64,000 bases of DNA, taken from the NCBI GenBank assembly GCA_013203315.1, contig JABMQJ010000012.1, positions 6,402 to 70,401 of the forward strand, read 5' to 3'. Position 1 is the first letter of the stretch, and the number at the start of each line of letters is the position of its first letter. The position numbers were made by a program, and so were the translations under genes. Shown here piece by piece: positions 24,807 through 61,419 of the stretch. A model generated the notes under the pieces. That model saw only the letters and a program-made list of their open reading frames with translations, searched no databases and had not been told where the DNA came from. The stretch is from Candidatus Omnitrophota bacterium. GTDB taxonomy: Bacteria; Omnitrophota; Gorgyraeia; JABMRN01; RBG-13-46-9.

Positions 24807-24836
24807 TTCGAACACTCCTTTTTCTGCGCACAAATT

Positions 24837-24865
24837 TGACAAAAGTTAGTTCCTAATGTATACTT
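24837..24865 (+). promoter_or_regulatory. Sigma70-type promoter TTGACA-17-TATACT upstream of cheR-TPR
   Basis: ttgaca at 24837-24842, 17-nt spacer, tatact at 24860-24865. An ~85-nt AT-rich leader follows, with ttgagtt x2 and cataata x2 direct repeats. Confidence 0.55.
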
Positions 24866-24950
24866 ATTGAGTTCAGGATATTTGTTGAGTTTTAGATATA
24901 AAGGACACCACAATATTAACTCATAATATTAATATCATAATACTAAGTAA

Positions 24951-26465
24951 ATGCCTGCAACAGTAGATATAAGAAACCAATTTAAGACTTTTGTAGCCAA
25001 CCGTGGCGGCCTATATTTTAAGGACCACGACCTAAAGAACCTCGAAAGCGCTATCTCCGCACGAATGAAATCCCGCGGAATGCATTCATTTCCCGGATAC
25101 TATGCATACCTTACAACCGCCGAAGAGAAAGAAGATGAGTTCAGAGAACTCTTAAATCTTCTAACGATAAACCACACATACTTCTTCAGGAACGAACCAC
25201 AATTCAAGGCTCTGAGGGAAAAGGTTTTGCCCAATGTGATTGAGAAAAAACGACAAGAAGCAAGCGCATCAGGCGAGGAAAAACCCGCGTTACGCATATG
25301 GAGCGCCGGTTGTGCGACAGGACAGGAGCCATATTCAATTGCAATGATAGTGCGTGATCTTATAGAAGACATAGATGATTGGGACGTACAAATACTCGCC
25401 ACTGACGCGTCCGAAAATGCATTACAGAATGCACGAAAAGGCACATATAGCCAGAACTCGGTAAAGCATGTTGATGAAACGCGCCTCGCGAGATATTTTA
25501 CAAAAGAAGGGAATACCGAGCGCGATACAAAATACCGGATACAGGAAAACATTAGAAGAATGATTAATTTTGCCTTTTTCAATCTCATGGAGGAAAGTTT
25601 CCCTACGGGTTTTGATATCATATTTTGCCGCAACGTTGTCATATATTTCGAATTTGAAACAACTGTAAAGGTTATGAATAAGCTTTATTCCGGCCTTTTA
25701 GACGGCGGTTACATGTTCATAGGCTATTCCGAAACGCTTCAATTCATGCAGGACAGGCTTCAGATGATAAGTTGGGAAGACGCGATATATTATCACAAGG
25801 CCAAAGGAAAAGCACCTGTTTATACGGAATTCGCCGAACCCCTGCCTGCTAAAGAGGAGATAGATCTAGATAAGGTCCTGGAAGAAATCTCAAAGGCAGA
25901 AGCCACCGCGAACTTAGAGGCCGAGACAAAAAAAGCGCCGCCTACTCAAAAAATAGAGAATATGCTCATTCAGATTATTAAAGCCATGCACCTAAAGCAA
26001 TACGACAAGGCCCTCTCACTTATTGAAGAAGCAAGTTCAGTGGACGATAAAGTGGTCGACCCTCATTATCTGGCGGCCGAGATTTTTATAAACCAGGGAA
26101 AAAGAGGCGAGGCAAAGACAAGGCTTTCTACCGCGCTAAAACTCGATTCGCTTTTCGCGCCGGCGCATTATCTTTATGGTTGTATATACGTGGAGGAAAG
26201 CGATCTTGATAACGCGAAAAAAAGTCTGAAAAAAGCCTTATTCATAGATAAAAATTTCTTATTGGCGCATTTTTATCTTGCTCAGGTTTTCAAAACCGAG
26301 GGACGCACAAAGGATGCGATCAGGGAATACAGAAATAGCCTGAAACTCTTGTCCGGGGCTGCGCCCGGAGATATTATAGCCTATAGCGGCGGGTTTAATG
26401 CTGCTACATTCATGAGTGTTTGCAGGGATAATCTGGAAAGACTAAAAATAGAATACGGAGATTAA
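24951..26465 (+). CDS. CheR-type protein-glutamate O-methyltransferase fused to C-terminal TPR repeats
   Basis: CheR N-terminal helical domain. SAM-binding RIWSAGCATGQEPYSIA. Residues ~330-504 form TPR helices (LAAEIFINQGKRGEA, YLYGCIYVEESDLDNA, HFYLAQVFKTEGRTKDA). Confidence 0.85.
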   Translation: MPATVDIRNQFKTFVANRGGLYFKDHDLKNLESAISARMKSRGMHSFPGYYAYLTTAEEKEDEFRELLNLLTINHTYFFRNEPQFKALREKVLPNVIEKKRQEASASGEEKPALRIWSAGCATGQEPYSIAMIVRDLIEDIDDWDVQILATDASENALQNARKGTYSQNSVKHVDETRLARYFTKEGNTERDTKYRIQENIRRMINFAFFNLMEESFPTGFDIIFCRNVVIYFEFETTVKVMNKLYSGLLDGGYMFIGYSETLQFMQDRLQMISWEDAIYYHKAKGKAPVYTEFAEPLPAKEEIDLDKVLEEISKAEATANLEAETKKAPPTQKIENMLIQIIKAMHLKQYDKALSLIEEASSVDDKVVDPHYLAAEIFINQGKRGEAKTRLSTALKLDSLFAPAHYLYGCIYVEESDLDNAKKSLKKALFIDKNFLLAHFYLAQVFKTEGRTKDAIREYRNSLKLLSGAAPGDIIAYSGGFNAATFMSVCRDNLERLKIEYGD

Positions 26466-26661: not shown

Positions 26662-29600
26662 ATGGAAAAGCAAATCAAACATAAGACTAGCTTGAGGCGA
26701 AAAATCGCGTTTCTTATTGTATTTTCCTGTCTTATCGTTATGCTTACAGGTTTTGGGTTGGGGTATTTATGGGGATTCAATTTGTTGCGTACTACAATAG
26801 GCGAAAGCCATGTCAGCATGGCCGATTTAATTTCAGAATCTGTTAGCAGAATTCTCAACGAAGAAGTCTCGGATCTTCACATATACATGTCGCTTCCGTT
26901 ACGCAGGGGCATGATTGAAAAGCAAAATCTCAAATATAGAGGAATGAATGAAGAGGCCGTTAGCAGATATTTTAAAGATATGGACGAAAAGTGGAAAGGG
27001 ACACAAAAAGACAATCCTTTGATCGAAGAATTGTTAGCGACAGAAACCAGCAACAGGTTGAAAAGCTTAGTAGCCGGAGATGCCGGTATTGCAGAAATTT
27101 TCATGACTGATGTGCAAGGAGGGTTAGTCGCTTCCTCAAACAAAACAAGCGATTTTTACCAGGCAGACGAAATCTGGTGGCAAAAAGCTTTTAACAACGG
27201 AAAGGGCGCTGACTTTATCGGGGATGCAGAACTTGATACGTCGTCTAATGTAATAAGCATAAGCTTAGCCGTCCCCATAAGAGGCGATTCAGGAGAAGTG
27301 ATAGGTGCCTGCAAGGCTGTCATGGATGTGAACCGTTTGTTTGAGCCCTTAAAAGATTTTGTTATCGGAAAAACAGGTCATGCAGTGTTGATTAACAAAA
27401 AAGGCGTTATCATTTTTCAAGAGGACATCACACCTTTAAGCCAAAGCCTAACAAGCGAAGAAAATTTGCAAAAAATATTAGAAACCCCAAAAGGGTGGAT
27501 AATTACAAGCAAACCTAACGAGCATAACAAAAAAACATTTATTGCGTTCACGGCAAGCAATTACTCTCTCTTTTTGCGAGAAGGGATACTGTGGAAGGTA
27601 TGCGTAGGCCAAAATGCCGATGAAGTGTTTGCGCCATTGAATACTTTAATGTTTCAGCTTTTTATAGTTGTCATTCTTGCCGCCGCAATTCTTGTTTTGG
27701 CTAGTGCGGTGTTTAGTGCAGCGTTCATTAAGCCGCTAATTGAGCTTCGCAATGCTACGGAGAAAATCGCGAAGGGTGATTTAGACTACCATATAGAAGT
27801 AAAAACGGGCGACGAAATCGAAGAATTTGCCGATTTTTTCAACCGGATGACTGACGAGTTAAAAAAATCTACTAGATCCGTCAGTGCGCTAAATAAAGAA
27901 ATCACCGAGCGTAAGAAAGTAGAATATGCACTTAAAGAAAGCGAGGAAAGATATAGAGTGCTGTACGATTCCTCGCGCGATGCCATTATGACATTGATGC
28001 CCGGGGGGAAATTTTTAAGCGGCAATCCTGCTACATTAGAAATGTTTGGGTGCAAGGATGAAAAAGAATTTATTTCTAAAACCCCAGCTGATTTATCACC
28101 GGAATATCAACCCGATGGGGAACTTTCTAGCGTAAGAGCGAAGCAGATGATGGACATGGCAATGGAAAAAGGTTCGCACTTTTTTGAATGGACGCATAAG
28201 AACGTAGGCGGAAAGAATTTTTTCGCTACAGTATTATTGACCCGAATGAAAATGGGAAATAAAGAATTTTTGCAAGCGACAGTCCGTGATATTTCCGTGT
28301 CTAAGAATATAGAGACTAAAGTAAGGCAAGCAGCAGAAGAATGGCAGCGCACATTTGATTCGATAGCGGATTTGGTATTTATTCAGGATACGAATTTCGT
28401 TATACTGAAAGCAAACAGGGCGTTTGCCGAAGCGATTAAAATGAAACCCGAAGACATTATCGGCAAAAAATGTTATGATTTATTGCATGGTCGGGATAAG
28501 CCATGGCCAAACTGTCCGTTTGAAAAAACAAAACACGACTCGAAGGCCCACACCGAAGAGGTGGACGACCCAAATATTGGCCTACCACTTTCGGTTTCAA
28601 CTTCGCCGATATTTGACAAAAAAGGTAAATTGGTGGGCAGCGTGCATATTGCCCAGGACATAAGAGCCAGAAAGAAAGCAGAGAAAGTCTTTCAGGACAC
28701 AAAAGACGAATTGGAAAAACAGACCTGGGGGCTCAGAAAAAGCAACGAAGCCATCAAGTCTCTCTATAAAGAGTTGGAGGGAAGCAATAAAGAACTCCAG
28801 AAGTTGGACCAATTAAAATCCGATTTCGTGTCAACCGTTTCACACGAATTACGCACGCCGCTATCTATAACTAAAGAAGGCATATCCTTGGTCCTGGATA
28901 GGGTAACCGGTGATATTAGCGGAAAACAGGAAAAAATACTCTCTACGGCAAGGGATAACATAGATCGCTTAGCTCGAATAATAAATGACCTACTTGATAT
29001 ATCCAAAATCGAAGCAGGCAAGGTCGATTTGAAAAAAGCCCTCGTGGATCTTTCAGGTAAGATAAAGGACGACTGCACATTATGGAAAATAGATGCGGAT
29101 AAAAAAAATCAAACCTTACAAATTTCCGTGCCGGATTCCCCGGTTAGCATTTATGTTGATCCTGACAAGATGGACCAAATTCTTCTTAATCTCGTATCGA
29201 ATGCCGTAAAATATACCCCTGATAAAGGAAAAATAAAGGTTGAGTTAAAAGATAAAGAAGGCGAGGTAGAGGTTTCTATTTCCGATACAGGCGTTGGCAT
29301 TGCCAAGGAGGATTTTCATAAGTTATTCGGTAAATTTCAACAGTTCAGCAGGGCCATAGGCCCAGGGGCAAAAGGCACGGGGCTTGGCCTTGCCATTGTT
29401 AAGCAGCTTGTTGAAATGCACAAGGGTAACATACGCGTTGAAAGCGAGCTCCACAAAGGTAGCAAATTTATCTTTTCTATTCCCAAGCTGGATGTTGAAG
29501 AGGTGTTTAGGGAATATATTAGTAGCGGGATAAAACAGGCAGCCGATAGAAAAACGCATCTTTCACTTCTTATTGTGCACGTGGTGAATTTCAAGCAAAT

Positions 29601-29910
29601 TTTTGAAGAGCTGGGCTATGATAAGGCGCACGCTTTACTTAAGGACATTGCGAAAGAGACAAAGGGATCGCTGCGTCGCCGTGCGGATAGCGTGGTAAGA
29701 GATACGGGCGATCTTATTGTGCTTCTATTCGATACGCGCAAGGAAGATGTGGCGGTTGTGAGGAAGAGGGTTGAAAAAACAATTAGCGATTATCTATCCG
29801 GCGGCAAAGAAAAATTTCTTAAAAATATCAGCATAACTTTCGGTAACGCAACATATCCCGATGAGGCAATCACTGATGAGGAATTACTAAAAAAGGCAAG
29901 ACCCGCGTAA
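26662..29910 (+). CDS. Multi-sensor histidine kinase: TM-periplasmic Cache-like domain-TM-HAMP-3 PAS-HisKA-HATPase_c, plus a C-terminal degenerate GGDEF domain with a preserved RxxD I-site
   Basis: 1082 aa. Two TM segments flank a ~280-aa extracytoplasmic domain, followed by HAMP (GDLDYHIEVKTGDEIEEFADFFNRM). H-box SHELRTPLS, G-box GTGLGLAIVKQL. The tail LSLLIVHVVNFKQIFEELGYDKAHALL...RRRADSVVRDTGDLIVLLFDT aligns to [27 protein letters not shown]...[21 protein letters not shown] of the downstream GGDEF protein. GGDEF is replaced by DTGDL but RxxD is kept. No receiver domain. Confidence 0.85.
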   Translation: MEKQIKHKTSLRRKIAFLIVFSCLIVMLTGFGLGYLWGFNLLRTTIGESHVSMADLISESVSRILNEEVSDLHIYMSLPLRRGMIEKQNLKYRGMNEEAVSRYFKDMDEKWKGTQKDNPLIEELLATETSNRLKSLVAGDAGIAEIFMTDVQGGLVASSNKTSDFYQADEIWWQKAFNNGKGADFIGDAELDTSSNVISISLAVPIRGDSGEVIGACKAVMDVNRLFEPLKDFVIGKTGHAVLINKKGVIIFQEDITPLSQSLTSEENLQKILETPKGWIITSKPNEHNKKTFIAFTASNYSLFLREGILWKVCVGQNADEVFAPLNTLMFQLFIVVILAAAILVLASAVFSAAFIKPLIELRNATEKIAKGDLDYHIEVKTGDEIEEFADFFNRMTDELKKSTRSVSALNKEITERKKVEYALKESEERYRVLYDSSRDAIMTLMPGGKFLSGNPATLEMFGCKDEKEFISKTPADLSPEYQPDGELSSVRAKQMMDMAMEKGSHFFEWTHKNVGGKNFFATVLLTRMKMGNKEFLQATVRDISVSKNIETKVRQAAEEWQRTFDSIADLVFIQDTNFVILKANRAFAEAIKMKPEDIIGKKCYDLLHGRDKPWPNCPFEKTKHDSKAHTEEVDDPNIGLPLSVSTSPIFDKKGKLVGSVHIAQDIRARKKAEKVFQDTKDELEKQTWGLRKSNEAIKSLYKELEGSNKELQKLDQLKSDFVSTVSHELRTPLSITKEGISLVLDRVTGDISGKQEKILSTARDNIDRLARIINDLLDISKIEAGKVDLKKALVDLSGKIKDDCTLWKIDADKKNQTLQISVPDSPVSIYVDPDKMDQILLNLVSNAVKYTPDKGKIKVELKDKEGEVEVSISDTGVGIAKEDFHKLFGKFQQFSRAIGPGAKGTGLGLAIVKQLVEMHKGNIRVESELHKGSKFIFSIPKLDVEEVFREYISSGIKQAADRKTHLSLLIVHVVNFKQIFEELGYDKAHALLKDIAKETKGSLRRRADSVVRDTGDLIVLLFDTRKEDVAVVRKRVEKTISDYLSGGKEKFLKNISITFGNATYPDEAITDEELLKKARPA

Positions 29911-29937
29911 AGCACCCAATGCTTAAAAGGAGGATGA

Positions 29938-30312
29938 GTGGCAAAGATGAAAATACTACTTGTTGACGATGAGCCAATGTTTATCGAAATAATGAAAACA
30001 AGGCTGGAGGCCGACGGCTGCGAGGTAATTACCGCTTCCGACGGAAAACAGGCGCTTGACAGGATAGCGCAAGACAAACCTGATGCGGTTTTGCTGGATA
30101 TTCTTATGCCCGTATTGGACGGGATGTCTGCGCTTGAAATGATAAGAAAGAAGGATAAAGAATTACCCGTATACATGCTGACTGCTTTCTCGACCGAAGA
30201 TAGAATTAAAGAGGCAAAAAGGGCCGGCGCTTCCGGGTTCCTTGTTAAAGACGGTGAGTTGAAAGAAGAAATTGGCGGTATAGTAGATCAATTAAAGAAA
30301 AATAAATCCTAA
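29938..30312 (+). CDS. CheY-like single-domain response regulator (1 of 4 tandem paralogs)
   Basis: GTG start. KILLVDDEP, LLDILMPVLDG, phospho-acceptor Asp, T and K positions conserved. 124 aa. Confidence 0.85.
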   Translation: MAKMKILLVDDEPMFIEIMKTRLEADGCEVITASDGKQALDRIAQDKPDAVLLDILMPVLDGMSALEMIRKKDKELPVYMLTAFSTEDRIKEAKRAGASGFLVKDGELKEEIGGIVDQLKKNKS

Positions 30313-30330
30313 CATGAAAAAGGAGGGTGC

Positions 30331-30714
30331 ATGAATAAGAAGAAAATCCTGATAATAGACGATGAAGTGGACCTGGTTGATTTAGTCAAGATGAGGCTTG
30401 AGGTGGCGAACTATTATGTGTTACCGCTTTATACGAGTACGCGCAGCCTCGAGATAGCGAAAAGAGAAAAACCCGACCTGGTTCTTCTGGATGTAATGAT
30501 GCCGGATAAAAACGGGTATGAGGTCTGCAAGGAGCTAAAAGCCGACGAGGCAACGCGCCATATCCCCGTAATTATATTTACCGCAAAACCTGAACAGAAA
30601 GAACGCATTAAAAAAGACGCTGAATTGGCCGGAGCCGATGACTACATCTTGAAACCTTTTGACCCGGCGGATTTAACTAAAAAGATCGAAAAACTCCTAA
30701 AAAAGGGGGTGTAA
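30331..30714 (+). CDS. CheY-like single-domain response regulator (2 of 4)
   Basis: ILIIDDEVDLV, LLDVMMPDKNGYEV, IPVIIFTAK, GADDYILKPF. 127 aa. Confidence 0.85.
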   Translation: MNKKKILIIDDEVDLVDLVKMRLEVANYYVLPLYTSTRSLEIAKREKPDLVLLDVMMPDKNGYEVCKELKADEATRHIPVIIFTAKPEQKERIKKDAELAGADDYILKPFDPADLTKKIEKLLKKGV

Positions 30715-30715
30715 A

Positions 30716-31093
30716 ATGAGTAAGAAAAGAATATTAGTCATTGATGATGAGTTGGAATTAGTGGCCATGCTAAAAATCAGGCTGGAAGCAAATAACTACG
30801 AGGTTGTTACAGCAGGTGACGGCGAAGAGGGTATGGAAAAGGCTAAAACCGAAAAGCCGGACTTAATCATTCTGGACATCATGATGCCTAAAAAAGACGG
30901 CTACACATTTATTAAGGAAATGAGAACCGAGCAAGGTATAAAAAGTACGCCTGTTATCATACTTACCGCTAAGGCGAAAATGCAGGATTTGTTTGCAATC
31001 GAAGGCGCGAAAGATTACATTGTAAAGCCTTTCGAAGCTACGGAACTCCTGGAGAAGATAGCAAGATATTTTAAGAATACAGGAAGCGAGTAA
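30716..31093 (+). CDS. CheY-like single-domain response regulator (3 of 4)
   Basis: ILVIDDELELV, ILDIMMPKKDGY, PVIILTAK, KDYIVKPF. 125 aa. Start 2 nt after the upstream stop. Confidence 0.85.
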   Translation: MSKKRILVIDDELELVAMLKIRLEANNYEVVTAGDGEEGMEKAKTEKPDLIILDIMMPKKDGYTFIKEMRTEQGIKSTPVIILTAKAKMQDLFAIEGAKDYIVKPFEATELLEKIARYFKNTGSE

Positions 31094-31104
31094 AGAACCG
31101 GAGG

Positions 31105-31485
31105 GTGAAAATGCCTGATAAAAAGAGGATCTTAATAGTCGACGACGAAATGCAATTGGTGGAAATGGTAAAGATACGCCTCGAGGCTAACGGCTACGAA
31201 ACTTTAGCAGCTTATGACGGCCAGACAGGGCTGAATATGGCAAAAAAAGAAAAACCCGATTTAATCATATTGGATTTGATGATGCCCAAAATGGACGGAT
31301 ATAAAGTTTGTGCCCTTTTGAAAAGAGATTCCAGATACTCAAAAATTCCCGTACTGATATTTACGGCAAAGGCGCAGGAAGAAGACGCAAAAATGAGCGA
31401 AGAAGCCGGTGCTGACGCATACCTTGTCAAACCCTTTGAACCGGAGGCACTACTAGGCAAAATAAGCGGATTATTGAAGGAGTGA
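31105..31485 (+). CDS. CheY-like single-domain response regulator (4 of 4)
   Basis: ILIVDDEMQLV, ILDLMMPKMDGY, PVLIFTAK, ADAYLVKPF. 126 aa. Stop overlaps the start region of pilB. Confidence 0.85.
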   Translation: MKMPDKKRILIVDDEMQLVEMVKIRLEANGYETLAAYDGQTGLNMAKKEKPDLIILDLMMPKMDGYKVCALLKRDSRYSKIPVLIFTAKAQEEDAKMSEEAGADAYLVKPFEPEALLGKISGLLKE

Positions 31486-31487
31486 AC

Positions 31488-33182
31488 ATGGCAAAAAAGC
31501 AGAAAAAGTCCCTCGGTGAGAGCCTCGTGGACGAAGGTATCATAACTCAGGATCAGCTGAAACAGGCGCAGGCAGAAGAGAAGCGCGTGGGTCAGCGTTT
31601 ACGTAAAGTGCTTGTTAAGATGGGGTTGATTGACGAAGGGGATCTCGTATCTTTTTTAAGCGACAAGTTGGGTGTGCCCAGGATAGAGCTTGGTAATTAT
31701 TTGATTGACGCGAAGATAATTGATTTGGTGCCCGAGGCGCTGGCCAGAAAACACGAACTTATTCCTGTATTTAAAATTGGGGATCGCCTTACGTGCGCGA
31801 TGCTTGATCCATGGAACATATTTGCGCTTGATGAGGTAAGAATGAAAACGCATTTAACGGTTGAGCCTGCTGTGGCGACAGAAGGCGAGATAAAGAAGGC
31901 CCTTAATCAATATTACAGCGCAAGGGGCAACATGGAAGACCTTATAAAAACTTTAGACCAAAAAGACCTGGGATTAGGAGAGGGTAAAGAAATCGACGCT
32001 AAAAAGCTACAGGGAATAGTGGAGGAGCCCATAGTAATAAGGCTTGTTAACATGATTATTTCAAAGGCCGTGCAGGAAAGGGCCAGTGACATTCACATTG
32101 AACCGGAAGAGAGCGTTCTTAAAACGCGATACAGGGTAGACGGCATGCTGCATGAAGCGCCGTCTCCGCCCAAGCACCTTCAATCTGCGGTGATATCGAG
32201 AATTAAAATAATGGCGGATCTCGATATTGCTGAAAGAAGGAAACCGCAGGATGGGCGTTTCAGCATTAAAATGGAAGGTAAACAGATAGATGTTCGCGTA
32301 TCCTGTATCCCCACCATATACGGAGAAAACGTTGTTTTGCGGCTTCTGGATACTTCGAGCACGCTTATTAGCTTGAAAGACATGGGATTCTCTAAAGAAG
32401 TGCTGGAAAAATACGAGAAGCTTGTCACGAGGCCGCATGGAATAATTCTTGTTACCGGGCCTACCGGAAGCGGAAAAACTACGACACTCTACGCCTCGCT
32501 CGATAAAATAAACACGGTGGAGAAAAATATCATAACAATTGAGGACCCGGTTGAATACAAGCTCGAAGGGATAAGGCAGACCCAGGTAAACCCCAAGGTT
32601 GACCTTACGTTTGCCAACGGACTCCGCTCTATACTGCGGCAAGATCCGGACATAATAATGGTAGGTGAAATGAGGGACTTCGAGACAGCTGAGATTGCAA
32701 TTCAGGCGGCGTTAACGGGCCACCTTGTTTTCTCAACGCTTCACACCAATGACGCCCCGGGCGCGGTGACACGAATGATCGATATGCGAGTCGAGACATT
32801 TCTTGTATCGTCTTCGGTAATTGGCGTGTTGGCCCAGAGGCTTGTAAGAACAATATGCCTTGCGTGCAAGGAAAAATATCAGCCGACAAAAGAAGAGTTG
32901 AAAGATATAGGGCTCACGGGTGATGAGAAAATAGATTTCTATAGAGGCAAGGGTTGCGATAAATGCATGAAAACAGGCTACAAGGGTAGAATCGGTATTT
33001 TTGAACTTATGATGGTGGATGACGAGATAAAGAACTTAATCATTGCGAAAACAACAGCCGAGGAGATTAGGAAAAATGCCCTTTCAAAAGGAATGATATC
33101 ATTGCAGGACGACGGAATCGAGAAAATAAAACAAGGACGTACAACAGTAGAGGAAGTTCTGCGCGTAACCCAGGAGGAATAA
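31488..33182 (+). CDS. pilB: Type IV pilus assembly ATPase (PilB/GspE family) with N-terminal T2SSE_N domain
   Basis: ATG at 31488 after a GAAGGA SD. Walker A GPTGSGKTTT, Asp/His boxes, tetracysteine CLAC...CDKC. N-terminal ~150 aa is a GSPII_E_N-like domain. Confidence 0.9.
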   Translation: MAKKQKKSLGESLVDEGIITQDQLKQAQAEEKRVGQRLRKVLVKMGLIDEGDLVSFLSDKLGVPRIELGNYLIDAKIIDLVPEALARKHELIPVFKIGDRLTCAMLDPWNIFALDEVRMKTHLTVEPAVATEGEIKKALNQYYSARGNMEDLIKTLDQKDLGLGEGKEIDAKKLQGIVEEPIVIRLVNMIISKAVQERASDIHIEPEESVLKTRYRVDGMLHEAPSPPKHLQSAVISRIKIMADLDIAERRKPQDGRFSIKMEGKQIDVRVSCIPTIYGENVVLRLLDTSSTLISLKDMGFSKEVLEKYEKLVTRPHGIILVTGPTGSGKTTTLYASLDKINTVEKNIITIEDPVEYKLEGIRQTQVNPKVDLTFANGLRSILRQDPDIIMVGEMRDFETAEIAIQAALTGHLVFSTLHTNDAPGAVTRMIDMRVETFLVSSSVIGVLAQRLVRTICLACKEKYQPTKEELKDIGLTGDEKIDFYRGKGCDKCMKTGYKGRIGIFELMMVDDEIKNLIIAKTTAEEIRKNALSKGMISLQDDGIEKIKQGRTTVEEVLRVTQEE

Positions 33183-34402
33183 TGCCTATATATACGTACA
33201 AAGCCCGAGACACGATGGGCAAATCAGTGCGAGGCAAGATGGAGGTTGATACCAAAGCCGAACTTATCGATAGGCTGCACAAAATGGGCTATATGACGAC
33301 GCAGGTGACAGAGGCCCGTTCCACCGGTGACCTTAACATCGAAACCCTACTCGACAAGATAAGACCCGTAGGCACTGAGCACATGCTCATGTTTTATGTT
33401 CAGCTTTCAAATATGATCAGCGCCGGTATACCTATTTTAACCTGTTTAGATACGCTCAGTAATCAGATTGAAAATAAGAAATTGAAAGACGCTGTTGGTA
33501 GTATTGCCAGAAGCGTCGGCGGAGGGGAAAGCCTTTCAAAGGCATTCAGGGACCAGCCCCGGGTATTCCCGCAACTCTTTTCCAATATGGTAAAAGCCGG
33601 AGAAGTCAGCGGAAAACTGGATACAGTATCGGTAAAATTTGCCGAATATTTCGAACACCAGGAAGACCTGCGCCAAAAAATAAGGAGCGCGCTTTTCTAC
33701 CCCATGATACTTTTGGTGGCAGGCGTAGCCGTTATGCTTTTTATAGTAACCTTTATCATACCGCTGTTTGCCCAGATTTTTGCAAAAAGCGGCATAGCCT
33801 TACCGGCCCCGACACTCCTGCTTTTAAAAATTGGCCTTTCAATTAAGCATTTCTGGTATTTAGGCATTCTGGCTTTCGTCGGATGTTTTTTAGTGGTTAA
33901 ATTTTACATAAATACTGAAATTGGACGGCTTAATTTCGATAAACTAAAATTGAAAATACCCATAATCGGATCGTTGCATCGCAGGGCAGCGCTCGCCAGC
34001 TTTACAAGGACCCTGGGGACCCTTACAGATAGCGGGGTTCCTATTCTCGAATCCCTGGATATCACAAAGTCAGTAATGGGAAACGAGGTGCTGTCCCGTG
34101 TTATTGCCAACGCGCGTAGCGCGGTTGAAAAAGGGGAGAAATTATCCGGGCCGCTTAAGATAAGCGAAGAGTTTCCGCCTGATGCTGTCCAGATGATTTC
34201 AGTAGGAGAGGAAACAGGTAATCTGGATACAATGCTGAATAAGGTCGCGGATTTTTATGACATGTCAGTGGGGTACTCCATAAAAAAACTGACAACCGTG
34301 ATTGAGCCCCTGTTTTTAGTTATCATGGGTAGCCTTATAGGATTTATCATGATCTCCATACTTTTGCCGATGTTTGACATGATAAAGGTTATTAAGCATT
34401 AG
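33182..34402 (+). CDS. pilC: Type IV pilus inner-membrane platform protein (PilC/GspF family)
   Basis: 406 aa. Two GspF repeats with 3 TM. Start overlaps the pilB stop (ATGA-type). Confidence 0.9.
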   Translation: MPIYTYKARDTMGKSVRGKMEVDTKAELIDRLHKMGYMTTQVTEARSTGDLNIETLLDKIRPVGTEHMLMFYVQLSNMISAGIPILTCLDTLSNQIENKKLKDAVGSIARSVGGGESLSKAFRDQPRVFPQLFSNMVKAGEVSGKLDTVSVKFAEYFEHQEDLRQKIRSALFYPMILLVAGVAVMLFIVTFIIPLFAQIFAKSGIALPAPTLLLLKIGLSIKHFWYLGILAFVGCFLVVKFYINTEIGRLNFDKLKLKIPIIGSLHRRAALASFTRTLGTLTDSGVPILESLDITKSVMGNEVLSRVIANARSAVEKGEKLSGPLKISEEFPPDAVQMISVGEETGNLDTMLNKVADFYDMSVGYSIKKLTTVIEPLFLVIMGSLIGFIMISILLPMFDMIKVIKH

Positions 34403-34411
34403 AAAGAGGGG

Positions 34412-34630
34412 GTGGCGAAAATGGAAGTATTTCTAGGTATTGCTTCAATATTTTTTCTTATTTTTGGCGCGATGCTTTTGCTTTCACCGAATATCGTTGA
34501 ACGAATTTCCAAAGCGACAAATAAGGTGCTTTTTAATCTGGATGACAAAATACAGTCTACGAGAAGACCCCTGGGAATTCTGCTATTGGCAATATCGATT
34601 TTTTTATGGTATACTGCGCTACATAAGTAA
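34412..34630 (+). CDS. Small 2-TM membrane protein (72 aa) between pilC and the major pilin
   Basis: Strong SD AGAGGGGG immediately upstream. Two hydrophobic helices (FLGIASIFFLIFGAMLLL, LGILLLAISIFLWY). Function unknown. Confidence 0.4.
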   Translation: MAKMEVFLGIASIFFLIFGAMLLLSPNIVERISKATNKVLFNLDDKIQSTRRPLGILLLAISIFLWYTALHK

Positions 34631-34645: not shown

Positions 34646-35104
34646 ATGATGAAGAAGAAAGGTTTTACACTGATTGAGCTTTTAATTGTGATAGCGGTTA
34701 TTTCTATCCTGATTGGTATCGCGCTTCCGCGTTTCAGGGGCATGCAGGAAGAGGGTTTGGTTGCGCAGGCCAAGGGAGAGTTAAGGACGCTCCAAACAGC
34801 CATAGAAAGTTACTATATCCACAATAGCAGCGCCTATCCGACAGATAGTGCTACCTGGCAATCAGATACAGATAGCCTTACCACTGCTACCCCGCTAATA
34901 GTAGGTACGGCTTTAATTGATCCGTTTTCCAGTGCAGGGGCGCAATATCAGCTGGTGTATGATACAAATACGGCTTATTATGCTATGTATTCAGTGGGTC
35001 CGGGCGGCACCGGGAGCGTTACCGCAGTTAGCACTGCCGGCGGTGTTACTGATACACCCAACTGCATTTATGTTTCGAACGGAGAAAGAGACACGACGCC
35101 ATAA
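34646..35104 (+). CDS. Type IV pilin, candidate major pilin (class III signal peptide, N-methylation motif)
   Basis: MMKKKG|FTLIELLIVIAVISILIGIALP with Glu at +5. 152 aa. Confidence 0.8.
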   Translation: MMKKKGFTLIELLIVIAVISILIGIALPRFRGMQEEGLVAQAKGELRTLQTAIESYYIHNSSAYPTDSATWQSDTDSLTTATPLIVGTALIDPFSSAGAQYQLVYDTNTAYYAMYSVGPGGTGSVTAVSTAGGVTDTPNCIYVSNGERDTTP

Positions 35105-35121
35105 TTTAAAGAGGGTACTTG

Positions 35122-35477
35122 TGAAAAATAATGGCTTTACCTTGCTGGAAATCCTTATGGCTATCGTACTTTTTACGGGAAGCGTTAGCCTTATTGTGAT
35201 GCTTTTCGCGAACGCTTTGGTTGCCAGCACTGATGCTGAAAATACGACAATCGCCATGAACTTAGCGCAAGGAAAAATGGAAGAGGTACGAAACCTTTCC
35301 TTCGCCAGCATTGCAGATGAAGCCAAGGCCGCCGTAACCGGTTTTACCGGATTTCAGAGAGAGGTTGCGGTGACAACGTCCGAAACAGACCTAAAGCAGG
35401 TAACGGTTACAACATACTGGACATATAAAGGCGGTGAAGTAGAAGTGCCGCTCGTAACCTATATTAGCAAAAATTAA
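35122..35477 (+). CDS. Minor (pseudo)pilin with prepilin-type N-terminus
   Basis: GTG start after an AGAGGG SD. VKNNG|FTLLEILMAIVLF, E at +5. 118 aa. The ORF-track 186-aa version (34917..) overlaps the pilin gene in another frame and was not used. Confidence 0.7.
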
Positions 35478-35478
35478 A

Positions 35479-35997
35479 ATGAAAAAGGGAATCACGTTAA
35501 TCGAGCTTATTATTAGCGTAACTCTTTTTTTAATACTTGGTAGCGTTGTTCTTTGGGTTTTTGTAGTGGGTTTAAGATCTTGGGATTCGGGTCTGAATAG
35601 GGCTAACATACGCCAGAGTGTCAATGTAGCGCTTGAGAGGATGACGCGGGAGCTCGGCCAGGCAAGCGAGGTTACTCAAGCCAAAGCCGGTAACATTACG
35701 TTTCAGGCAGATTTAGACGAGAATGGCACCGTGGAAACCATAACGTTTGATGTTACAAATGCCGATAACCTGGAGCGCACCGAGAGTGGCCGAGACATTC
35801 TTATGGTTAGCAATGTGCAAGACTTTACACTGGGTTATTATCTGGAATCGGGCAATGACACTCTTTTAAGCTCTGTTAATTCTCCTGCTAACCGGGATAC
35901 TATACGGGTTGTTGTTATATCAATTACCGTAAGCGAAGGTGACGAAACGCTTACATTTAGCACAAGCGCTTATACACGAAATCAGTCAAATGATTAA
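35479..35997 (+). CDS. Minor (pseudo)pilin with prepilin-type N-terminus
   Basis: MKKG|ITLIELIISVTLFLILGSVV, E at +5. 172 aa. Confidence 0.75.
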   Translation: MKKGITLIELIISVTLFLILGSVVLWVFVVGLRSWDSGLNRANIRQSVNVALERMTRELGQASEVTQAKAGNITFQADLDENGTVETITFDVTNADNLERTESGRDILMVSNVQDFTLGYYLESGNDTLLSSVNSPANRDTIRVVVISITVSEGDETLTFSTSAYTRNQSND

Positions 35998-36790
35998 AAG
36001 AGAAAAAGGCGCGATTTTAATAATGGTTTTTGTTGTTATGGTTGCTCTAAGCGGTGTGGCATTTGCTTTTTTGACAATGATTAGCCAGGAGACAAAGAGT
36101 GCGGGAACGGGACTCCTAAATATGCAAGCATTTTATATAGCGGAAGCAGGCCGCGCAAAGGCGAGGTGGGCACTTACTACAGACGGGCAAACTGCCGGTG
36201 TCTGGGGTGAATCCGATACTTCCCTGGGAGAGGGGACGTATAACGTTACTACTGTTGATAATGGTGATGGTACAATCACTATTACATCAGATGGGTATAT
36301 CCCCGATGACACCAGTCCACTCATAATGAGAAGGGTTTTAGAGAAAGATATAACTACGGTTTCCGGTTCATCTAATAATCTTGCTTTAGACGCCATAGCC
36401 TCGGATTCATCTACATTTGGCGGTAATGTTGCCGCAAATGCCAACGACGACAATAGTTCTACGAGATGGCGCTCAGGTGTTAATGGCAATTCGCAGCTTC
36501 AATTAGATTTTGGAAGCGCAACAGAATTCGATAAGGTTGTGTTTGACGAAAGGCAATTTAGTTCATATGCAGTGCAATATTCAAGTAATGCTAGCACGTG
36601 GAATTCGGTGACTGGTGCGACTACAACAGTAGCCGGAAATGTGACTACGGTTACTTTTGATGGGGTTACAGTCAGATATGTGAGACTTGACATTAATGGT
36701 AATAGACCGTCGGTATATGAATTTGAAACATATCTAACAACTGCAACAGGCATCGGGCTCGAAAGAGGCGAATTCGCTACTTCCTGGTAG
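35990..36790 (+). CDS. PilX-like minor pilin fused to a C-terminal F5/8 type C (discoidin/CBM32-like) carbohydrate-binding domain
   Basis: ATG 35990 (ATGATTAA overlap with the upstream stop). N-terminus MIKREKG|AILIMVFVVMVALSGVAFAFL lacks E+5, typical of PilX/minor pilins. Residues ~130-265 (ASDSSTFGGNVAANANDDNSSTRWRS...QLQLDFGSATEFDKVVFDE...YAVQYSSNASTWNSV...VRYVRLDINGN...YEFETY) match the discoidin/CBM32 pattern (N-x-T-R-W, LDLG, RYVRL, aromatic-E-aromatic-E). Confidence 0.7.
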   Translation: MIKREKGAILIMVFVVMVALSGVAFAFLTMISQETKSAGTGLLNMQAFYIAEAGRAKARWALTTDGQTAGVWGESDTSLGEGTYNVTTVDNGDGTITITSDGYIPDDTSPLIMRRVLEKDITTVSGSSNNLALDAIASDSSTFGGNVAANANDDNSSTRWRSGVNGNSQLQLDFGSATEFDKVVFDERQFSSYAVQYSSNASTWNSVTGATTTVAGNVTTVTFDGVTVRYVRLDINGNRPSVYEFETYLTTATGIGLERGEFATSW

Positions 36791-36791
36791 C

Positions 36792-38396
36792 ATGAAGGGT
36801 ATAATGGGATTTATTGCATTTTTTAAAAAAGATTACATAGTTGGAATAGACATAGGAACCTCGTCTGTAAAAATCGCGCAATTTAAAGAAACGGAATACG
36901 GGTTAAATCTTGTCAGGGCAGAGTTGCGGGAGTTTAAGCCAACCGTTGACAAGGCCATTTACGAAAAAGAAGTTTTATCCGCGCTCAAGGCCTTATTTAA
37001 AGGTATAGACACCAAAAAATCTCAAATCATCGCACATATAAATTGCCCCATGACAACCGTGAAGACTCTTAAGGCGCCCTATATGCCAAAATCAGAATTG
37101 CGCGAAGGCATAAAACTGGAGGTAAAGAATTATTTCCCGTTTCCGATAGATGATTCCCTCTTGGATTTTGAAATACTGGGCGATGTCGTAGAAAAGGGCG
37201 TGAGAAAATATGAAGTAGCGGTAGCGGTCTCACCCGCTATGACAGTTGACAAGTATTTGGCGCTACTTAATAAAGCAGGAATTAAGCCCGCTTCTTTTGT
37301 CCCCTGCCCGTATGCCCTGCAGAAATTAGCAGAACAGTTACCACAAAAGGGAGAAGGCGCTACAACGTGTTTTGTCGATATAGGCGAAATTCATACGGAA
37401 CTTGTAATTTTAAAAGGCAAAACGTTAATGTTCAGCCGCAAAATTCCTGTTGCCGGAAAGGATTTTACAAAAGCCATGACAGGGGTCCTTGTCTCCGATA
37501 GAGGAAAGACCGAACTTAGTATAGATGAGGCGGAAAAAATAAAGCGTGAAACAGGTATTCCGGAAGTCGCCGAAGAGAAAATTATAGATAATAAAATTTC
37601 TACCACGCAGATCTCATCAATGCTTCGGACACCGCTTGAGCAGTTTGTAAGCGAGATGGAAAGGTGTTTTGATTATTACAGAGAAGAAACCGGTGGCGGG
37701 AAAATAGATTCTGTTGTGTTGTTCGGCGCCGGCGCATCTTTGACGGGCTTTATCAAGTTTCTGTCCGAAGAGTTAGGTATAGAGGTTAAGTTGGGAGACC
37801 CTACCGAAGGAATCAGGTGCGAAAAGGATGCGATTCCGGAAAGAGACAAAAATTCTTATAGGCTGGATCTGGCGATAGGCGCAGCTTTGGGCCGGGCCAG
37901 GGGCATAAATCTTCTTCCTCCTGAAATTAAAGAAGCAACAAAAAAGGTTGTTACGCGCGGGACAATTGAAGCAGTTGCTACGGCGGTAATACTCGTATCG
38001 CTACTCCTTTATATAGGAATGAGAATACAAATCGGAAATTTTGATAAAAGAATTTCAGTAGCAAAACTGGAACTAGCTAGCTTACAACCCGCGCTCAAAA
38101 AAGCCGAAGCCCACCACGCGGCAAATATGGTTCTGGTAGATGAGCCGCACTGGGAAGATGTTTTCAGAGAATTGGCTAATCTCATACCGAAAGATACCCA
38201 TCTTACAAATGTTAGCATGAGAGATAGCGTGATTACCATGAAAGGCATTGTAGCCGCCGAGGATGGCGAAAGCCATCTCTCGGAGTTCATGCTTACGCTT
38301 GAACGAGGAATATTTAAGAACGTAAAACTTGTAAAGACAAGAGATTTAAGCGATAAATCAGGTAATGAATTTGAGCTTGAGTGTCAGGTAGATTGA
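36792..38396 (+). CDS. PilM-PilN fusion: actin-like ATPase-fold PilM domain, then a TM helix and PilN-like periplasmic region
   Basis: 534 aa. N-terminal IVGIDIGTSSVKIA (actin/FtsA-like fold) through ~aa 370. Then TM AVATAVILVSLLLYIGMRI and a coiled-coil/periplasmic tail. Confidence 0.8.
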   Translation: MKGIMGFIAFFKKDYIVGIDIGTSSVKIAQFKETEYGLNLVRAELREFKPTVDKAIYEKEVLSALKALFKGIDTKKSQIIAHINCPMTTVKTLKAPYMPKSELREGIKLEVKNYFPFPIDDSLLDFEILGDVVEKGVRKYEVAVAVSPAMTVDKYLALLNKAGIKPASFVPCPYALQKLAEQLPQKGEGATTCFVDIGEIHTELVILKGKTLMFSRKIPVAGKDFTKAMTGVLVSDRGKTELSIDEAEKIKRETGIPEVAEEKIIDNKISTTQISSMLRTPLEQFVSEMERCFDYYREETGGGKIDSVVLFGAGASLTGFIKFLSEELGIEVKLGDPTEGIRCEKDAIPERDKNSYRLDLAIGAALGRARGINLLPPEIKEATKKVVTRGTIEAVATAVILVSLLLYIGMRIQIGNFDKRISVAKLELASLQPALKKAEAHHAANMVLVDEPHWEDVFRELANLIPKDTHLTNVSMRDSVITMKGIVAAEDGESHLSEFMLTLERGIFKNVKLVKTRDLSDKSGNEFELECQVD

Positions 38397-38415: not shown

Positions 38416-38943
38416 ATGATAAAAATAGGAAATATTGAAATAACGCCGGAAAAAAAGATTATTGCGATAATTACGGCAGTTTTAGTTTTGGCAATAACAA
38501 TATACGTTATTTTCTTCGCTCCGCTTTTTGTAAAACTAAAAATAAAATTTTCCGAATACATGGCAATTGAGCATGAGGTGCGCCAATACAGGAGCATTAT
38601 AGAGTCTGCAGGAAAAGTATATAGCGAGAGAACCCTTCAGAGTGAAGAAGACGTTTCGCGCTCAATAGACGAGCTGGCCAAACACGGAAAAGTAAAAGAT
38701 GTGAAATTTATCTCCATAAATCCTGAAAAAGTCGTAAGGAAAGAAGATACGCAGTATAAGGTATTACCTGTTGAGATGGAACTCGAGTCTACATATGCGG
38801 GCCTCGGAGTATTCCTGGGGTCACTGGATGACCTGGAAAAGACCCTGGTTAAGGTAAAGAGTTTTAACATTTCTCATGATAAAAATGATCCAACGAAATT
38901 TATAACGGATCTTGAAGTAGAAGTATACCTCTCGGAGAAATAA
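38416..38943 (+). CDS. PilO-like pilus assembly protein (single N-terminal TM, periplasmic domain)
   Basis: 175 aa. TM IIAIITAVLVLAITIYVIFFAPLF, coiled-coil, ferredoxin-like C-terminus. Position after pilMN. Confidence 0.6.
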   Translation: MIKIGNIEITPEKKIIAIITAVLVLAITIYVIFFAPLFVKLKIKFSEYMAIEHEVRQYRSIIESAGKVYSERTLQSEEDVSRSIDELAKHGKVKDVKFISINPEKVVRKEDTQYKVLPVEMELESTYAGLGVFLGSLDDLEKTLVKVKSFNISHDKNDPTKFITDLEVEVYLSEK

Positions 38944-38944
38944 C

Positions 38945-39376
38945 ATGAAAAATAAAAAGCTCGTCGTATTAATTATATTGGGAATCGGCGCTATATTAAG
39001 CCTAATTTACGGCATAACCACGCCTTCGCGTGGAAAAAGGAGCGCTGCTACCTCCCGCAAGCCTCAGGAAGCGGTAACCCAGGATAACACGGCGCAACAT
39101 GCAAGCAAAATCGTTCCCACCGCGCGTCGCGCAAAAAAAACAGAGTTTACTACCTGGAAAAGAAATCCGTTTACCCCGACGGGCGTTCCCGGCACATCAT
39201 CTTCCGCGCTTACCCTGGGTGGTATAATGTGGCAGGAGGTAAGCCCTAAGGCCATGGTCAGTAATGAAATCGTTGGAATAGGCGACAAAGTCGGTGGGTA
39301 TAAGGTAATCGACATAAAAAAAGATCGTGTTGTTCTAAGCGATGGCAAAGAAAACCACACCCTCTATCTTAAATAA
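38945..39376 (+). CDS. PilP-like pilus assembly protein
   Basis: 143 aa. N-terminal membrane anchor, low-complexity linker, C-terminal beta-domain motif VGIGDKVGGYKVIDIKKDRVVL typical of PilP/GspC HR domains. Confidence 0.5.
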   Translation: MKNKKLVVLIILGIGAILSLIYGITTPSRGKRSAATSRKPQEAVTQDNTAQHASKIVPTARRAKKTEFTTWKRNPFTPTGVPGTSSSALTLGGIMWQEVSPKAMVSNEIVGIGDKVGGYKVIDIKKDRVVLSDGKENHTLYLK

Positions 39377-40686
39377 TGCCTAACAAGCTAAAAAGAACAG
39401 GGACCAGAAACAAACGTATCAGCGCACGGGATAAATTTCTTAAGGGTATCCACCAAAAAAACCGCCAAGTGCTTGAGAAGAGCCTGTTTGAGCTCACCGC
39501 TGCATATAATATAGGAAGAGAAGCCTCTTACGCAGCCGATTTACGGAATTGTCTCAAGATTCTTGTGGACGGCATTGCGGATTTGATGTCTGTTGAAATC
39601 GTATCGGTTATGCTAATGGATAGATATGAAGAGGGGCTTGTATTGGAATTCTCCAAGGGCCTGGGTAATGAAATAACCAAAGAAAAAGTGCGGTTGGGCC
39701 ACGGTATTGCGGGCTGGATTGCCCAGACCGGGGAAGCGTTACTAATTAAAGATATAAAAAAGGATGTAAGATTTTCGAGGCGCGGGGGCAAATATTATAC
39801 GGATTCACTCCTGAGCGTGCCGCTCAAAATAAACAAGAAAGTTATCGGCGTAATAAACGTAAATAATAAGGTAACGAGAGATATTTTTGAAGAAGAAGAC
39901 ATGGATGTACTGAGGAAGGTTGCGGGCCTTGCGGCAGCGGCCATTGAAAGCGCCAGGCTTCAGGAGGAGGCAGTGGCGCGCGACGAGACGCGGCTTGAAT
40001 TCATATCAAATATTTCGCACGAATTACGCACGCCACTTTCCTGTATAAACGAGGGCGTGTCCCTGGTTTTAGACGGAGTAACGGGCAAGATAAACAGTAA
40101 GCAAAAAGAGTTTCTGGCCTCGGTAAAGAATAACATTGAACGCCTGAAGCGCCTTGTCAGTGAACTGCTGGAGCTGGCCAAGGTAGAGTCGCGGATTACA
40201 CGAATGAGAAGGAGCCTTTTTGATGTGGTGCAATTGATAGAAGGGGTTGTTGCCTCAATGGGGCCCCTCGTAAAAGACAAAAAGATTTCGCTTAAAAAGA
40301 CGTTGCCCGATAAAAATATTCAGATCTGGGCAGATCCGGATAAACTGAGCCAGGTTCTTACCAATTTGATTGATAACGCCATGAAGTATAATAAACCCAA
40401 GGGCATCGTGGAGGTCAGTATGGATGAGTCAGCCAAGACTGTTAATATCAATATACGCGACACAGGCATTGGCATACCGGAAGAAGATATAAAAAAGATT
40501 TTTGACAGATTTTACCGCGTAGAGGCCTCGGCAAAAAGCAAAACCCGCGGCGCCGGGATAGGCTTGTCGATTATAAACGAAATCATAAAAAAGCACAGGG
40601 GAAACATTTCTGTCGATTCCGAGGTTGGCAAGGGAAGCAGATTTACCGTAACGCTGCCGAAGGACCTGAGGGCGGAAAATAGATAA
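39376..40686 (+). CDS. Cytoplasmic GAF-domain sensor histidine kinase
   Basis: 436 aa. GAF (residues ~60-200: RLGHGIAGWIAQTGEALLIKD), H-box SHELRTPLS, HATPase_c N/G boxes. Confidence 0.85.
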   Translation: MPNKLKRTGTRNKRISARDKFLKGIHQKNRQVLEKSLFELTAAYNIGREASYAADLRNCLKILVDGIADLMSVEIVSVMLMDRYEEGLVLEFSKGLGNEITKEKVRLGHGIAGWIAQTGEALLIKDIKKDVRFSRRGGKYYTDSLLSVPLKINKKVIGVINVNNKVTRDIFEEEDMDVLRKVAGLAAAAIESARLQEEAVARDETRLEFISNISHELRTPLSCINEGVSLVLDGVTGKINSKQKEFLASVKNNIERLKRLVSELLELAKVESRITRMRRSLFDVVQLIEGVVASMGPLVKDKKISLKKTLPDKNIQIWADPDKLSQVLTNLIDNAMKYNKPKGIVEVSMDESAKTVNINIRDTGIGIPEEDIKKIFDRFYRVEASAKSKTRGAGIGLSIINEIIKKHRGNISVDSEVGKGSRFTVTLPKDLRAENR

Positions 40687-41556
40687 GTGGAAAAGAAGAA
40701 AATATTAATTATCGAGGATGACGAAGACTTACTAGAAGTTCTGCAAGTGAGGCTCTCCAGCCAGGGATACGAAGTTCATACGAATATAGGTAAGAGGGAA
40801 GTTCTCCGGGAGATACGAAGCATATGGCCGGATCTTATTCTTCTTGATATAACATTGCCTGAAATAAGCGGCCTGGAAATAAAAGCGGAATTAAATAAAA
40901 ATACTCATACCGCCAGCATTCCTGTAATATTTTTAACCGGCAAAGACTCGGTTTCCGATAAGGTGAAAGGCCTTGGGCTCGGCGCGGACGATTATATAGC
41001 GAAGCCATTTGACTCAAAGGAGCTGATGTCTCGGATTGAGGCCGCGCTAAGACGGAGAGGTTTTTACGAAGAGATTTCCATGACTGACGGCCTTACGGGG
41101 GTGTATAATGTGAAATTTTTTCAAAAACAGATTACATTATTTTTTAATATAGCCAAAAGATATAAAAAGATATTTGCGCTTATAATCATTGATATCGATA
41201 ATCTGAAAGACATAAATGATACATACGGGCACCTGGCAGGCGATTTTATTTTGAAAGAATTTTCTTCATTAACTAAAAAGACATTGAGAAAATCTGATAT
41301 ACTTGCAAGATACGGAGGAGATGAGTTCGCCATTATTATGCCTGAGACTGACGAAGAGCATGCCGCTTACGCGATTGACAGGTTAAAGCAGAACATAAAC
41401 GGAAAGCCGTTTGTATTCGGGGATAAAAAACAGGAGTTAAGATTTAACATTAGCGTTGGTATGACGACCTACAGGGACACGCTAACAAGCGAGCTCGAAA
41501 TGTTCGGGGAAGCCGACAAAAAGCTCTATCGGGATAAGCATAAAGCGAGTAAATAA
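40687..41556 (+). CDS. Response regulator-diguanylate cyclase (REC-GGDEF, PleD/WspR-like). Intact GGDEF and RxxD I-site.
   Basis: GTG start. Receiver [13 protein letters not shown]...[11 protein letters not shown]. GGDEF domain with [13 protein letters not shown] and I-site RKSD. 289 aa. Confidence 0.9.
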   Translation: [289 protein letters not shown]

Positions 41557-61386: not shown

Positions 61387-61411
61387 TATAACGATAAGTG
61401 TAGTGTATAAT
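61383..61411 (+). promoter_or_regulatory. Sigma70-type promoter TTGATA-17-TATAAT whose predicted start site coincides with the ATG at 61420 (leaderless)
   Basis: ttgata at 61383-61388, 17-nt spacer, tataat at 61406-61411. ATG begins 8 nt after the -10 hexamer. Confidence 0.5.
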
Positions 61412-61419
61412 TTGCCAAT

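Follow-up and report, generated by a model that had tools for sequence, protein, structure and literature searches.

Many pilins are modular. The published catalogue of proteins in which a module is grafted on a pilin carrier exceeds 1,200 entries and spans 264 architectures, lectin modules being among the commonest (PMC8179133). In S. sanguinis, the minor pilin PilC carries a concanavalin A (ConA)-like lectin, has been shown to bind sialylated glycans and is placed at the pilus tip by modelling (PMC9934059), and the type IVb minor pilins CofB and TcpB are tip initiators whose head has a lectin fold (PMC6048534). Inserted domains are also known from K-type subunits, namely GspK and ComZ; ComZ of Thermus thermophilus, argued to be a tip pilin, has a solenoid between its penultimate and last strands (PMC6561018). 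Here we analyse 64,000 nucleotides of a Candidatus Omnitrophota bacterium (GCA_013203315.1, contig JABMQJ010000012.1; the window, whose own numbering is used below, with features on the forward strand unless stated otherwise) and describe a K-type minor pilin (PilX/GspK/ComZ-like; 35990..36790) that carries a discoidin domain of the CBM32 family. The open reading frame (ORF), its Pfam matches, an AlphaFold2 (AF2) model and 77 homologues of the same length and architecture identify it. What is new is a coherent, mainly Omnitrophota family that joins a K-type carrier to CBM32 within a conserved operon, and a literature search found no paper describing a CBM32-bearing K-type pilin family. An initial annotation of this DNA had called lectin-fused pilins rare, which is overstated: several of the catalogued modular pilins bear lectin modules (PMC8179133), and only the discoidin version is rare. 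An InterPro survey keyed on IPR012902 lists one protein combining N_methyl with F5/8C (PMC8179133); because the present family is of the PilX_N type, such a survey would miss it.

The head of the protein comprises residues 128-248 (36371..36733). The F5/8 type C model PF00754 matches residues 138-237 with 66.4 bits against a cutoff of 28.2 (E 3.5e-18), the related PF22633 matches the same residues with 58.8 bits, and the F5/8 type C domain was matched in 29/29 homologues. The full-length AF2 model, built on the alignment of 29 homologues, has a mean predicted local distance difference test score (pLDDT) of 87.6, exceeding 90 over most of this domain, and by model and structure comparison the predicted fold of the head is a discoidin jelly-roll. 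The initial annotation had read a C-terminal discoidin domain from the letters, and all four peptide strings that it quoted are present in the translation; the discoidin assignment stands, neither of the two outcomes named there as refuting it (no significant F5/8 type C match, no jelly-roll fold) having occurred. The annotation needs one correction: 18 conserved residues follow the domain as a tail, and its position is thus not strictly C-terminal. Among structures in the PDB, the top matches of the 29-homologue profile are 4zy9, 4zxe, 2rv9, 2j1a, 5zu6 and 2jd9, all of them CBM32. First come the chitosan-binding modules DD1 and DD2 of a Paenibacillus chitosanase/glucanase (4zxe, 4zy9, 2rv9; E 5e-18), then galactose, pectin and alginate CBM32s. 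DD1 and DD2 sit on glycoside hydrolases, not on pilins, yet they share the Ca2+ motif with the head described here, and DD1 is 33% identical to it. The structural Ca2+ site of CBM32 uses the Asp and Thr side chains of N-x-x-D-x-N-x-x-T (PMC5651945). In the K-type pilin, compared at the level of sequence, the motif reads N150-A-N-D153-D-N155-S-S-T158; D153 is invariant in the family and T158 is the commonest residue at its position (about 70-79% of sequences). We regard the head as a putative carbohydrate binder. Transfer of chitosan specificity from DD1/DD2 was considered and dropped: the acidic residues that contact glucosamine are not conserved in the family, and we propose no ligand.

The carrier of this head has the make-up of a pilin. 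The N-terminus reads MIKREKG/AILIMVFVVMVALSGVAFAFL, that is, a short basic leader (residues 1-7, 35990..36010) that ends in Gly (-1), a residue shared by at least 90% of the family, followed by a hydrophobic alpha1N of about 20 residues; the leader would be cleaved by a prepilin peptidase. The alpha-1 helix (residues 8-63, 36011..36178; AF2 helix 2-63, PilX_N alignment 6-54) consists of this hydrophobic part and then a conserved QAFYIAEAGRAKARWALT motif. It is the most conserved stretch of the protein, and the motif occurs in ComZ too. A four-stranded pilin beta-sheet (residues 72-125, 36203..36364) follows. In the predicted structure the long N-terminal helix packs on the antiparallel sheet as an alpha-beta roll, and a separate model of residues 1-127 (pLDDT 83.9) consists of a 62-residue helix and four antiparallel strands. 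As the initial annotation had noted, Glu+5 is absent; position +5 is Met here and varies among homologues.

How is the head attached to the carrier? The conserved tail (residues 249-266, 36734..36787; consensus LGQGxFxTSW) is predicted to form strands at 255-257 and 261-265. In it G260 is invariant, while L257 and T264 are conserved in at least 90% of the family. Relatives that bear a solenoid, or that are short (125-154 aa) and lack a head, terminate in a similar ...SW[KQRE]E strand. Given this resemblance, and the placement of the solenoid in ComZ, the discoidin domain is probably inserted before the last pilin strand, at the position of the ComZ solenoid, instead of being appended, and the tail would be that last strand. 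The argument uses tail motifs read by eye together with the ComZ structure paper, because MAFFT, run with the head-less relatives, misplaced their last strand within the discoidin region; a full-length hhalign comparison paired only the N-terminal 108 columns and left the tails unaligned. The link to ComZ itself runs through a chain of profiles. The N-terminal profile of the discoidin family matches that of longer relatives of the PilX_N/DUF7305 type with 99.8% probability (E 8.6e-30), and the latter finds ComZ's crystal structure (6qvi) with E 1.7e-15, in a match covering the QAFYxAEAG helix and the next strands. By this chain the pilin module is homologous to the ComZ family, sharing with it the QAFYxAEAG helix and the GxYxxT...(T/S)xG strands. 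Like ComZ, it lacks a canonical N_methyl/Glu+5 signature and is encoded among minor pilins, and it would likewise place a large domain after the penultimate strand and before the final one. ComZ is argued to cap its filament (PMC6561018), and we read the present pilin as a cap likewise. The two differ in the head, a DNA-binding beta-solenoid (DUF7305-type) of about 380 residues in ComZ and a CBM32 domain of 120 residues here; DUF7305 has no match in the discoidin pilin.

The gene is embedded in a conserved operon. Its ORF of 266 aa runs from ATG 35990 to a stop at 36788-36790. One public gene caller prefers a longer form from GTG 35939 (283 aa); the homologues begin with M-x(2-8)-[KR]-G, and the Joint Genome Institute (JGI) call on the identical contig is 266 aa, the window matching a 74.5-kb JGI metagenome contig. 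Because the family alignment and the JGI call agree, we take ATG 35990 as the start. As the initial annotation had observed, this start overlaps the stop of the upstream ORF (35479-35997, TAA 35995-35997) within the 8-nt ATGATTAA. That upstream ORF encodes a J-like minor pilin of 172 aa (MKKG/ITLIE, Glu+5 present) and adjoins the K-type gene in 9/9 loci. The whole block, in which the K-type gene is counted as the tenth, is tightly packed and co-directional, in the order regulators, ATPase, platform, small ORF, G, I, J, K-CBM32, PilMN, PilO, PilP-like, regulators. A scan of one genome per species gave nine loci with full-length relatives, seven of them labelled Omnitrophota, and the core order ATPase-platform-G-I-J-K-CBM32-PilMN-PilO-PilP-like was found in 9/9, at 35-54% identity. 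Horizontal acquisition of the K-type gene was considered and rejected, because the gene, the operon and the whole window have the same GC content (0.438) and because synteny is kept down to 35% identity.

We propose, with a rough probability of 0.6, that the K-type minor pilin caps the tip of a type IV filament and presents there a lectin head that binds surface carbohydrate. In this scheme the hydrophobic helix without Glu+5 would anchor the pilin in the inner membrane. The I-, J- and K-like pilins, K being translationally coupled to J, would assemble into a priming complex that comes to lie at the distal tip. As the first subunit, K would have none above it to neutralise and could therefore dispense with Glu+5, as GspK does. 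The GspG-like pilin would polymerise below K, powered by the GspE/PilB ATPase, which would sense c-di-GMP and work on a platform of PilC, PilMN and PilO; the two-component and diguanylate cyclase genes around it may share control of polymerisation. The head, exposed at the surface, would then bind carbohydrate on its target, be it exopolysaccharide, particulate glycan or the envelope of a host or of prey, and the Omnitrophota cell would thereby gain a tip adhesin without PilY1. The results that weigh against this proposal bear on the pilin module, the machinery and the ligand, and are given in the next three paragraphs with the alternatives that they favour.

Concerning the pilin module, N_methyl (PF07963 / TIGR02532) gave no match in the K-type pilin, even at E <=1. 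PilX_N (PF14341) scores the protein itself at 20.1 bits, below its cutoff of 25.5 (E 6e-4), and a Foldseek search of the N-terminal model against the PDB returned nothing significant, so the fold evidence for this module is moderate, not strong. In a search of the PDB with the N-terminal profile of the discoidin family, ComZ 6qvi came out on top, but at E 0.21, and homology to ComZ thus rests on the intermediate family. The PilX-like N-terminus of the initial annotation is supported by the family, in which PilX_N matches 16/29 members at E <0.01 (best E 1.4e-9), by the fold and by the position after the I- and J-like pilins, but not by the protein's own score. One may then suppose that the protein does not enter a filament at all and is an uncleaved, membrane-anchored lectin in type II orientation, periplasmic or at the surface, that merely shares the operon. 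Both the N_methyl motif and Glu+5 are absent, ComZ, the solved relative, is not a predicted PilD substrate (PMC6561018), and a prepilin peptidase gene was not found in the window. We nevertheless hold this to be highly improbable. Gly -1 is conserved, the fold is that of a minor pseudopilin, the filament-contact surfaces (helix and sheet) are among the most conserved parts, and the gene invariably follows the I- and J-like pilins with stop and start codons overlapping. Lack of Glu+5 is moreover a known hallmark of the first-assembled K subunit, GspK. Since the protein is a K-type subunit, absence of N_methyl and Glu+5 is the expected exception. The resemblance to GspK has its bounds. Like GspK/XcpX and the PilX of P. 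aeruginosa-type type IVa pili (T4aP), the pilin lacks Glu+5, is encoded after the I and J pilins, is bulky with an extra domain and shows PilX_N matches across its family. The GspK equivalog NF037980 gives 17.8 bits against 130 and aligns only the N-terminal 65 residues, and whereas the extra domain of GspK is alpha-helical and lies between strands 3 and 4 (PMC6561018), here it is an all-beta discoidin domain after the fourth strand.

The machinery shows mixed traits. The extension ATPase (GspE/PilB; 31488..33182), with T2SSE and an N-terminal MshEN c-di-GMP-binding domain (51.7 bits against a cutoff of 38), passes the GspE model TIGR02533 (664 bits vs 630.25) and narrowly fails the PilB model TIGR02538 (651.2 vs 675.65). 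It is 100% identical to a protein that NCBI names 'type II secretion system ATPase GspE [Candidatus Omnitrophica bacterium]'. No secretin (PilQ/GspD), PilT or prepilin peptidase (A24) turned up within the 64 kb of the window or next to the operon at any of the nine loci; a search covering the window and, at five related loci, the ORFs that lie downstream yielded housekeeping genes and, at one locus, an extra T2SSE ATPase. Secretin and PilT may have their genes in another part of the genome. With none of these three genes near the operon, a surface-exposed, retractile pilus is not demonstrated. The scores and the NCBI name of the ATPase favour a system resembling those of type II secretion (T2SS), in which the K-type pilin, as the analogue of GspK, would cap a short periplasmic pseudopilus and the CBM32 domain would engage glycosylated or polysaccharide cargo, or the outer-membrane channel, with no external adhesin. 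The gene order E-F-G-I-J-K-L-like-M-like-C-like parallels gsp operons, the presumed fibre subunit (152 aa, MMKKKG/FTLIE; 34646..35104) is a GspG-like pilin by N_methyl (37.4 bits) and synteny, with T2SSG/GspG models below cutoff, and the best fold matches of the K-type pilin module are T2SS pseudopilins. The PilM-PilN fusion (36792..38396; PilM_2 124 bits, PilN 34.7 bits) has a GspL-like architecture, and the small PilP/GspC-like protein (38945..39376), at a conserved position, has weak GspC matches. We consider such a system unlikely. Its own secretin, GspD, is missing in or beside the operon at every locus, and the PilM of the fusion passes its curated cutoff (TIGR01175, 144.6 vs 133), whereas the GspL and GspM models stayed below the reporting threshold on the PilMN and PilO proteins of the window, one related PilO having a weak T2SSM match. 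PilM (equivalog), PilN and PilO (both Pfam) all score above cutoff and together make up an alignment complex; PilO-like (38416..38943) rests on PF04350 (36 bits) and on synteny in 8/9 loci, the ninth (L009) ending at a contig edge. JGI calls homologues of the ATPase PilB. The minor pilins of the Thermus type IV pilus (T4P), including the homologous ComZ, have a T2SS-like fold and yet belong to a true pilus (PMC6561018), and a TXSScan-based survey places T4aP in nearly all Omnitrophota, proposing them for host attachment and recording discoidin domains only in giant ORFs (PMC10066038). A lectin head is also more sensible outside the cell. We describe the machine as a putative type IV filament that combines T4P and T2SS traits. 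Of the other components, the platform protein GspF/PilC (33182..34402) matches T2SSF with 207 bits while both the PilC and GspF equivalogs fall below cutoff; the I/PilV-like minor pilin (35121..35477; MKNNG/FTLLE), 118 aa from GTG 35121 and of the same length in the Logan gene call, is supported by a ribosome-binding site, GspI/PilV matches and synteny; and an H-like pilin was not recognisable in the operon.

As to the ligand, the apical loops of the CBM32 domain, their boundaries being approximate, are the most variable part of the protein, so that a ligand common to the family cannot be named; conservation is highest in the helix, the sheet and the tail. This pattern fits a conserved assembly interface combined with a diversifying ligand site. 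The closest functional precedent is PilC, which, like the present protein, is a minor pilin that displays a carbohydrate-binding module, here a putative one, grafted on a pilin carrier (PMC8179133), with the differences that its ConA-like fold is appended by a linker to a canonical N_methyl pilin, in contrast to the discoidin/CBM32 domain here, and that it belongs to a monoderm pathogen, not to an uncultured diderm phylum of the PVC group. CofB calls for caution. CofB and TcpB share with our reading a tip initiator pilin with a lectin-fold head, although CofB is a homotrimer with an H-type lectin fold in a type IVb system, and that head binds a secreted protein, not a sugar (PMC6048534). By analogy, the discoidin fold of our tip pilin may have been repurposed for a non-carbohydrate ligand, such as a secreted partner, a host surface protein or a membrane lipid. 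Its discoidin-fold matches indeed include binders of protein and lipid (neuropilin, DDR, the C domains of factors V and VIII, IFT25 and APC10), the invariant residues are generic structural ones, and the loops, as said, vary. This alternative appears quite unlikely to us: the closest relatives in sequence and structure are all bacterial carbohydrate-binding CBM32s, with DD1 at E 5e-18 against about 1e-7 for the neuropilin profile match; the structural Ca2+ motif of CBM32 is kept; and the operon holds no conserved candidate gene for a partner. We retain carbohydrate as the presumed ligand.

The discoidin head is one among several on a common pilin carrier. Beyond the full-length relatives, the similarity of about 70 more loci, drawn from many phyla, is confined to the first ~100 residues; their proteins mostly measure 350-700 aa, and among 56 such longer relatives the beta-solenoid DUF7305 was found in 25 and PilX_N in 22. 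When only the N-terminal 127 aa were used as the query of a word-indexed search, no more than six fragments came back. The N-terminal profile, run exhaustively against 1.84 billion cluster representatives, retrieved 5,547 clusters at E <=1e-3 and 273 at E <=1e-10, with lengths of 130-836 aa. In 103 of the best full-length cluster representatives, PilX_N was present in 30, DUF7305 in 22, discoidin in 18 and an ice-binding-like adhesive domain in four, while Laminin_G_3 (a ConA-like lectin), an LVIVD propeller and a sialidase N-terminal domain occurred once each. The ComZ/PilX_N module is thus an apparent common carrier, spread over thousands of clusters and many phyla, with its heads at apparently the same insertion point. 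It is tempting to regard the CBM32 head as the determinant by which these Omnitrophota nanobacteria recognise host or prey, a receptor-binding protein borne on a pilus, whose variable apical loops would track the surface glycans of different hosts while the carrier exchanges one head for another across phyla (solenoid, discoidin, ConA-like, propeller) in the way that phage tail fibres change their tips, though we give this extension little credence. Public annotation of the family goes no further than 'discoidin domain-containing protein' or 'PilX'. The same operon, with a discoidin K-type pilin at 35% identity, occurs at one of the nine loci in a high-GC metagenome-assembled genome (MAG) labelled Planctomycetales (L011, CAZKXY010000024.1; GC 0.684), which implies that the family extends past the low-GC Omnitrophota, unless this label is wrong. 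In the Omnitrophota MAG Zod_Metabat.1437, the discoidin K-type pilin is accompanied by a second PilX_N-type protein of 341 aa without discoidin (L029 7989-9011; L004 7983-8801), implying that a single cell has several filament systems whose tips differ.

Further features of the operon deserve mention. Between the platform gene and the first pilin lies a small ORF (34412-34630, +) of 69-72 aa with two hydrophobic segments. It has no family match and is absent from the operon of the complete Omnitrophota genome CP070837.1, yet gene calls on the identical contigs of JGI and Logan include it. Within it, just upstream of the pilin gene, lies the region's best sigma-70-like site (TTGGCA-18-TATACT with TG, 34586-34615), while promoters and terminators, scanned over the operon as a whole, occurred at chance level. 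In CP070837.1 (L001 1-1985) a second PilMN-PilO pair directly precedes the regulators of the operon, giving tandem filament clusters. In the single-amplified genome AM-311-K22 a second T2SSE-family ATPase of 450 aa follows the PilP-like gene (L007 11359-12708) and might be a retraction ATPase.

Regulatory genes enclose the filament genes on both sides. Upstream (26662..31485), a histidine kinase of Cache-HAMP-PAS build, fused to GGDEF, is followed by four tandem, CheY-like single-domain response regulators; downstream (39376..41556), a GAF histidine kinase is accompanied by a diguanylate cyclase of response regulator-GGDEF build, and the same kinds of regulators flank the operon in related loci. 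Such unusually dense signalling genes, together with the MshEN ATPase, suggest c-di-GMP-gated filament extension. Farther upstream, in the region 23062-26465 (+), a CheR-type methyltransferase with fused TPR repeats (24951-26465) stands without a chemoreceptor or CheA gene in its vicinity; before it come a retropepsin-like aspartyl protease (24036-24806) and an ORF of 336 aa whose only match, to DUF7926, is weak. Virtually all credible genes of the window lie on the plus strand, and minus-strand ORFs of at least 120 aa nearly all overlap plus-strand genes, 61105-61482 being the exception, which amounts to a very strong bias in gene orientation. Two trehalose routes stand close to each other, an OtsA-type GT20 enzyme and a TreT-type trehalose synthase (13181-14650 and 16078-17295, +). 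The rest of the window is housekeeping, with glycolysis, glycogen synthase, an oligopeptide (Opp) ABC transporter and full leucine and arginine biosynthesis. Given its trehalose, glycogen, leucine, arginine and Opp genes, the organism seems not to be metabolically reduced.

Omnitrophota are widespread, uncultured, mostly ultra-small bacteria, and a life on other cells is suspected. For their attachment type IV pili have been proposed, with no adhesin named (PMC10066038). The family described here is a concrete, clonable adhesin candidate, the 120-residue head of which is expressible alone. It also brings into the modular-pilin concept the K-type tip subunits, a class that escapes surveys built on N_methyl. 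The finding is unlikely to surprise pilus specialists; what it offers is a testable candidate for an enigmatic phylum.

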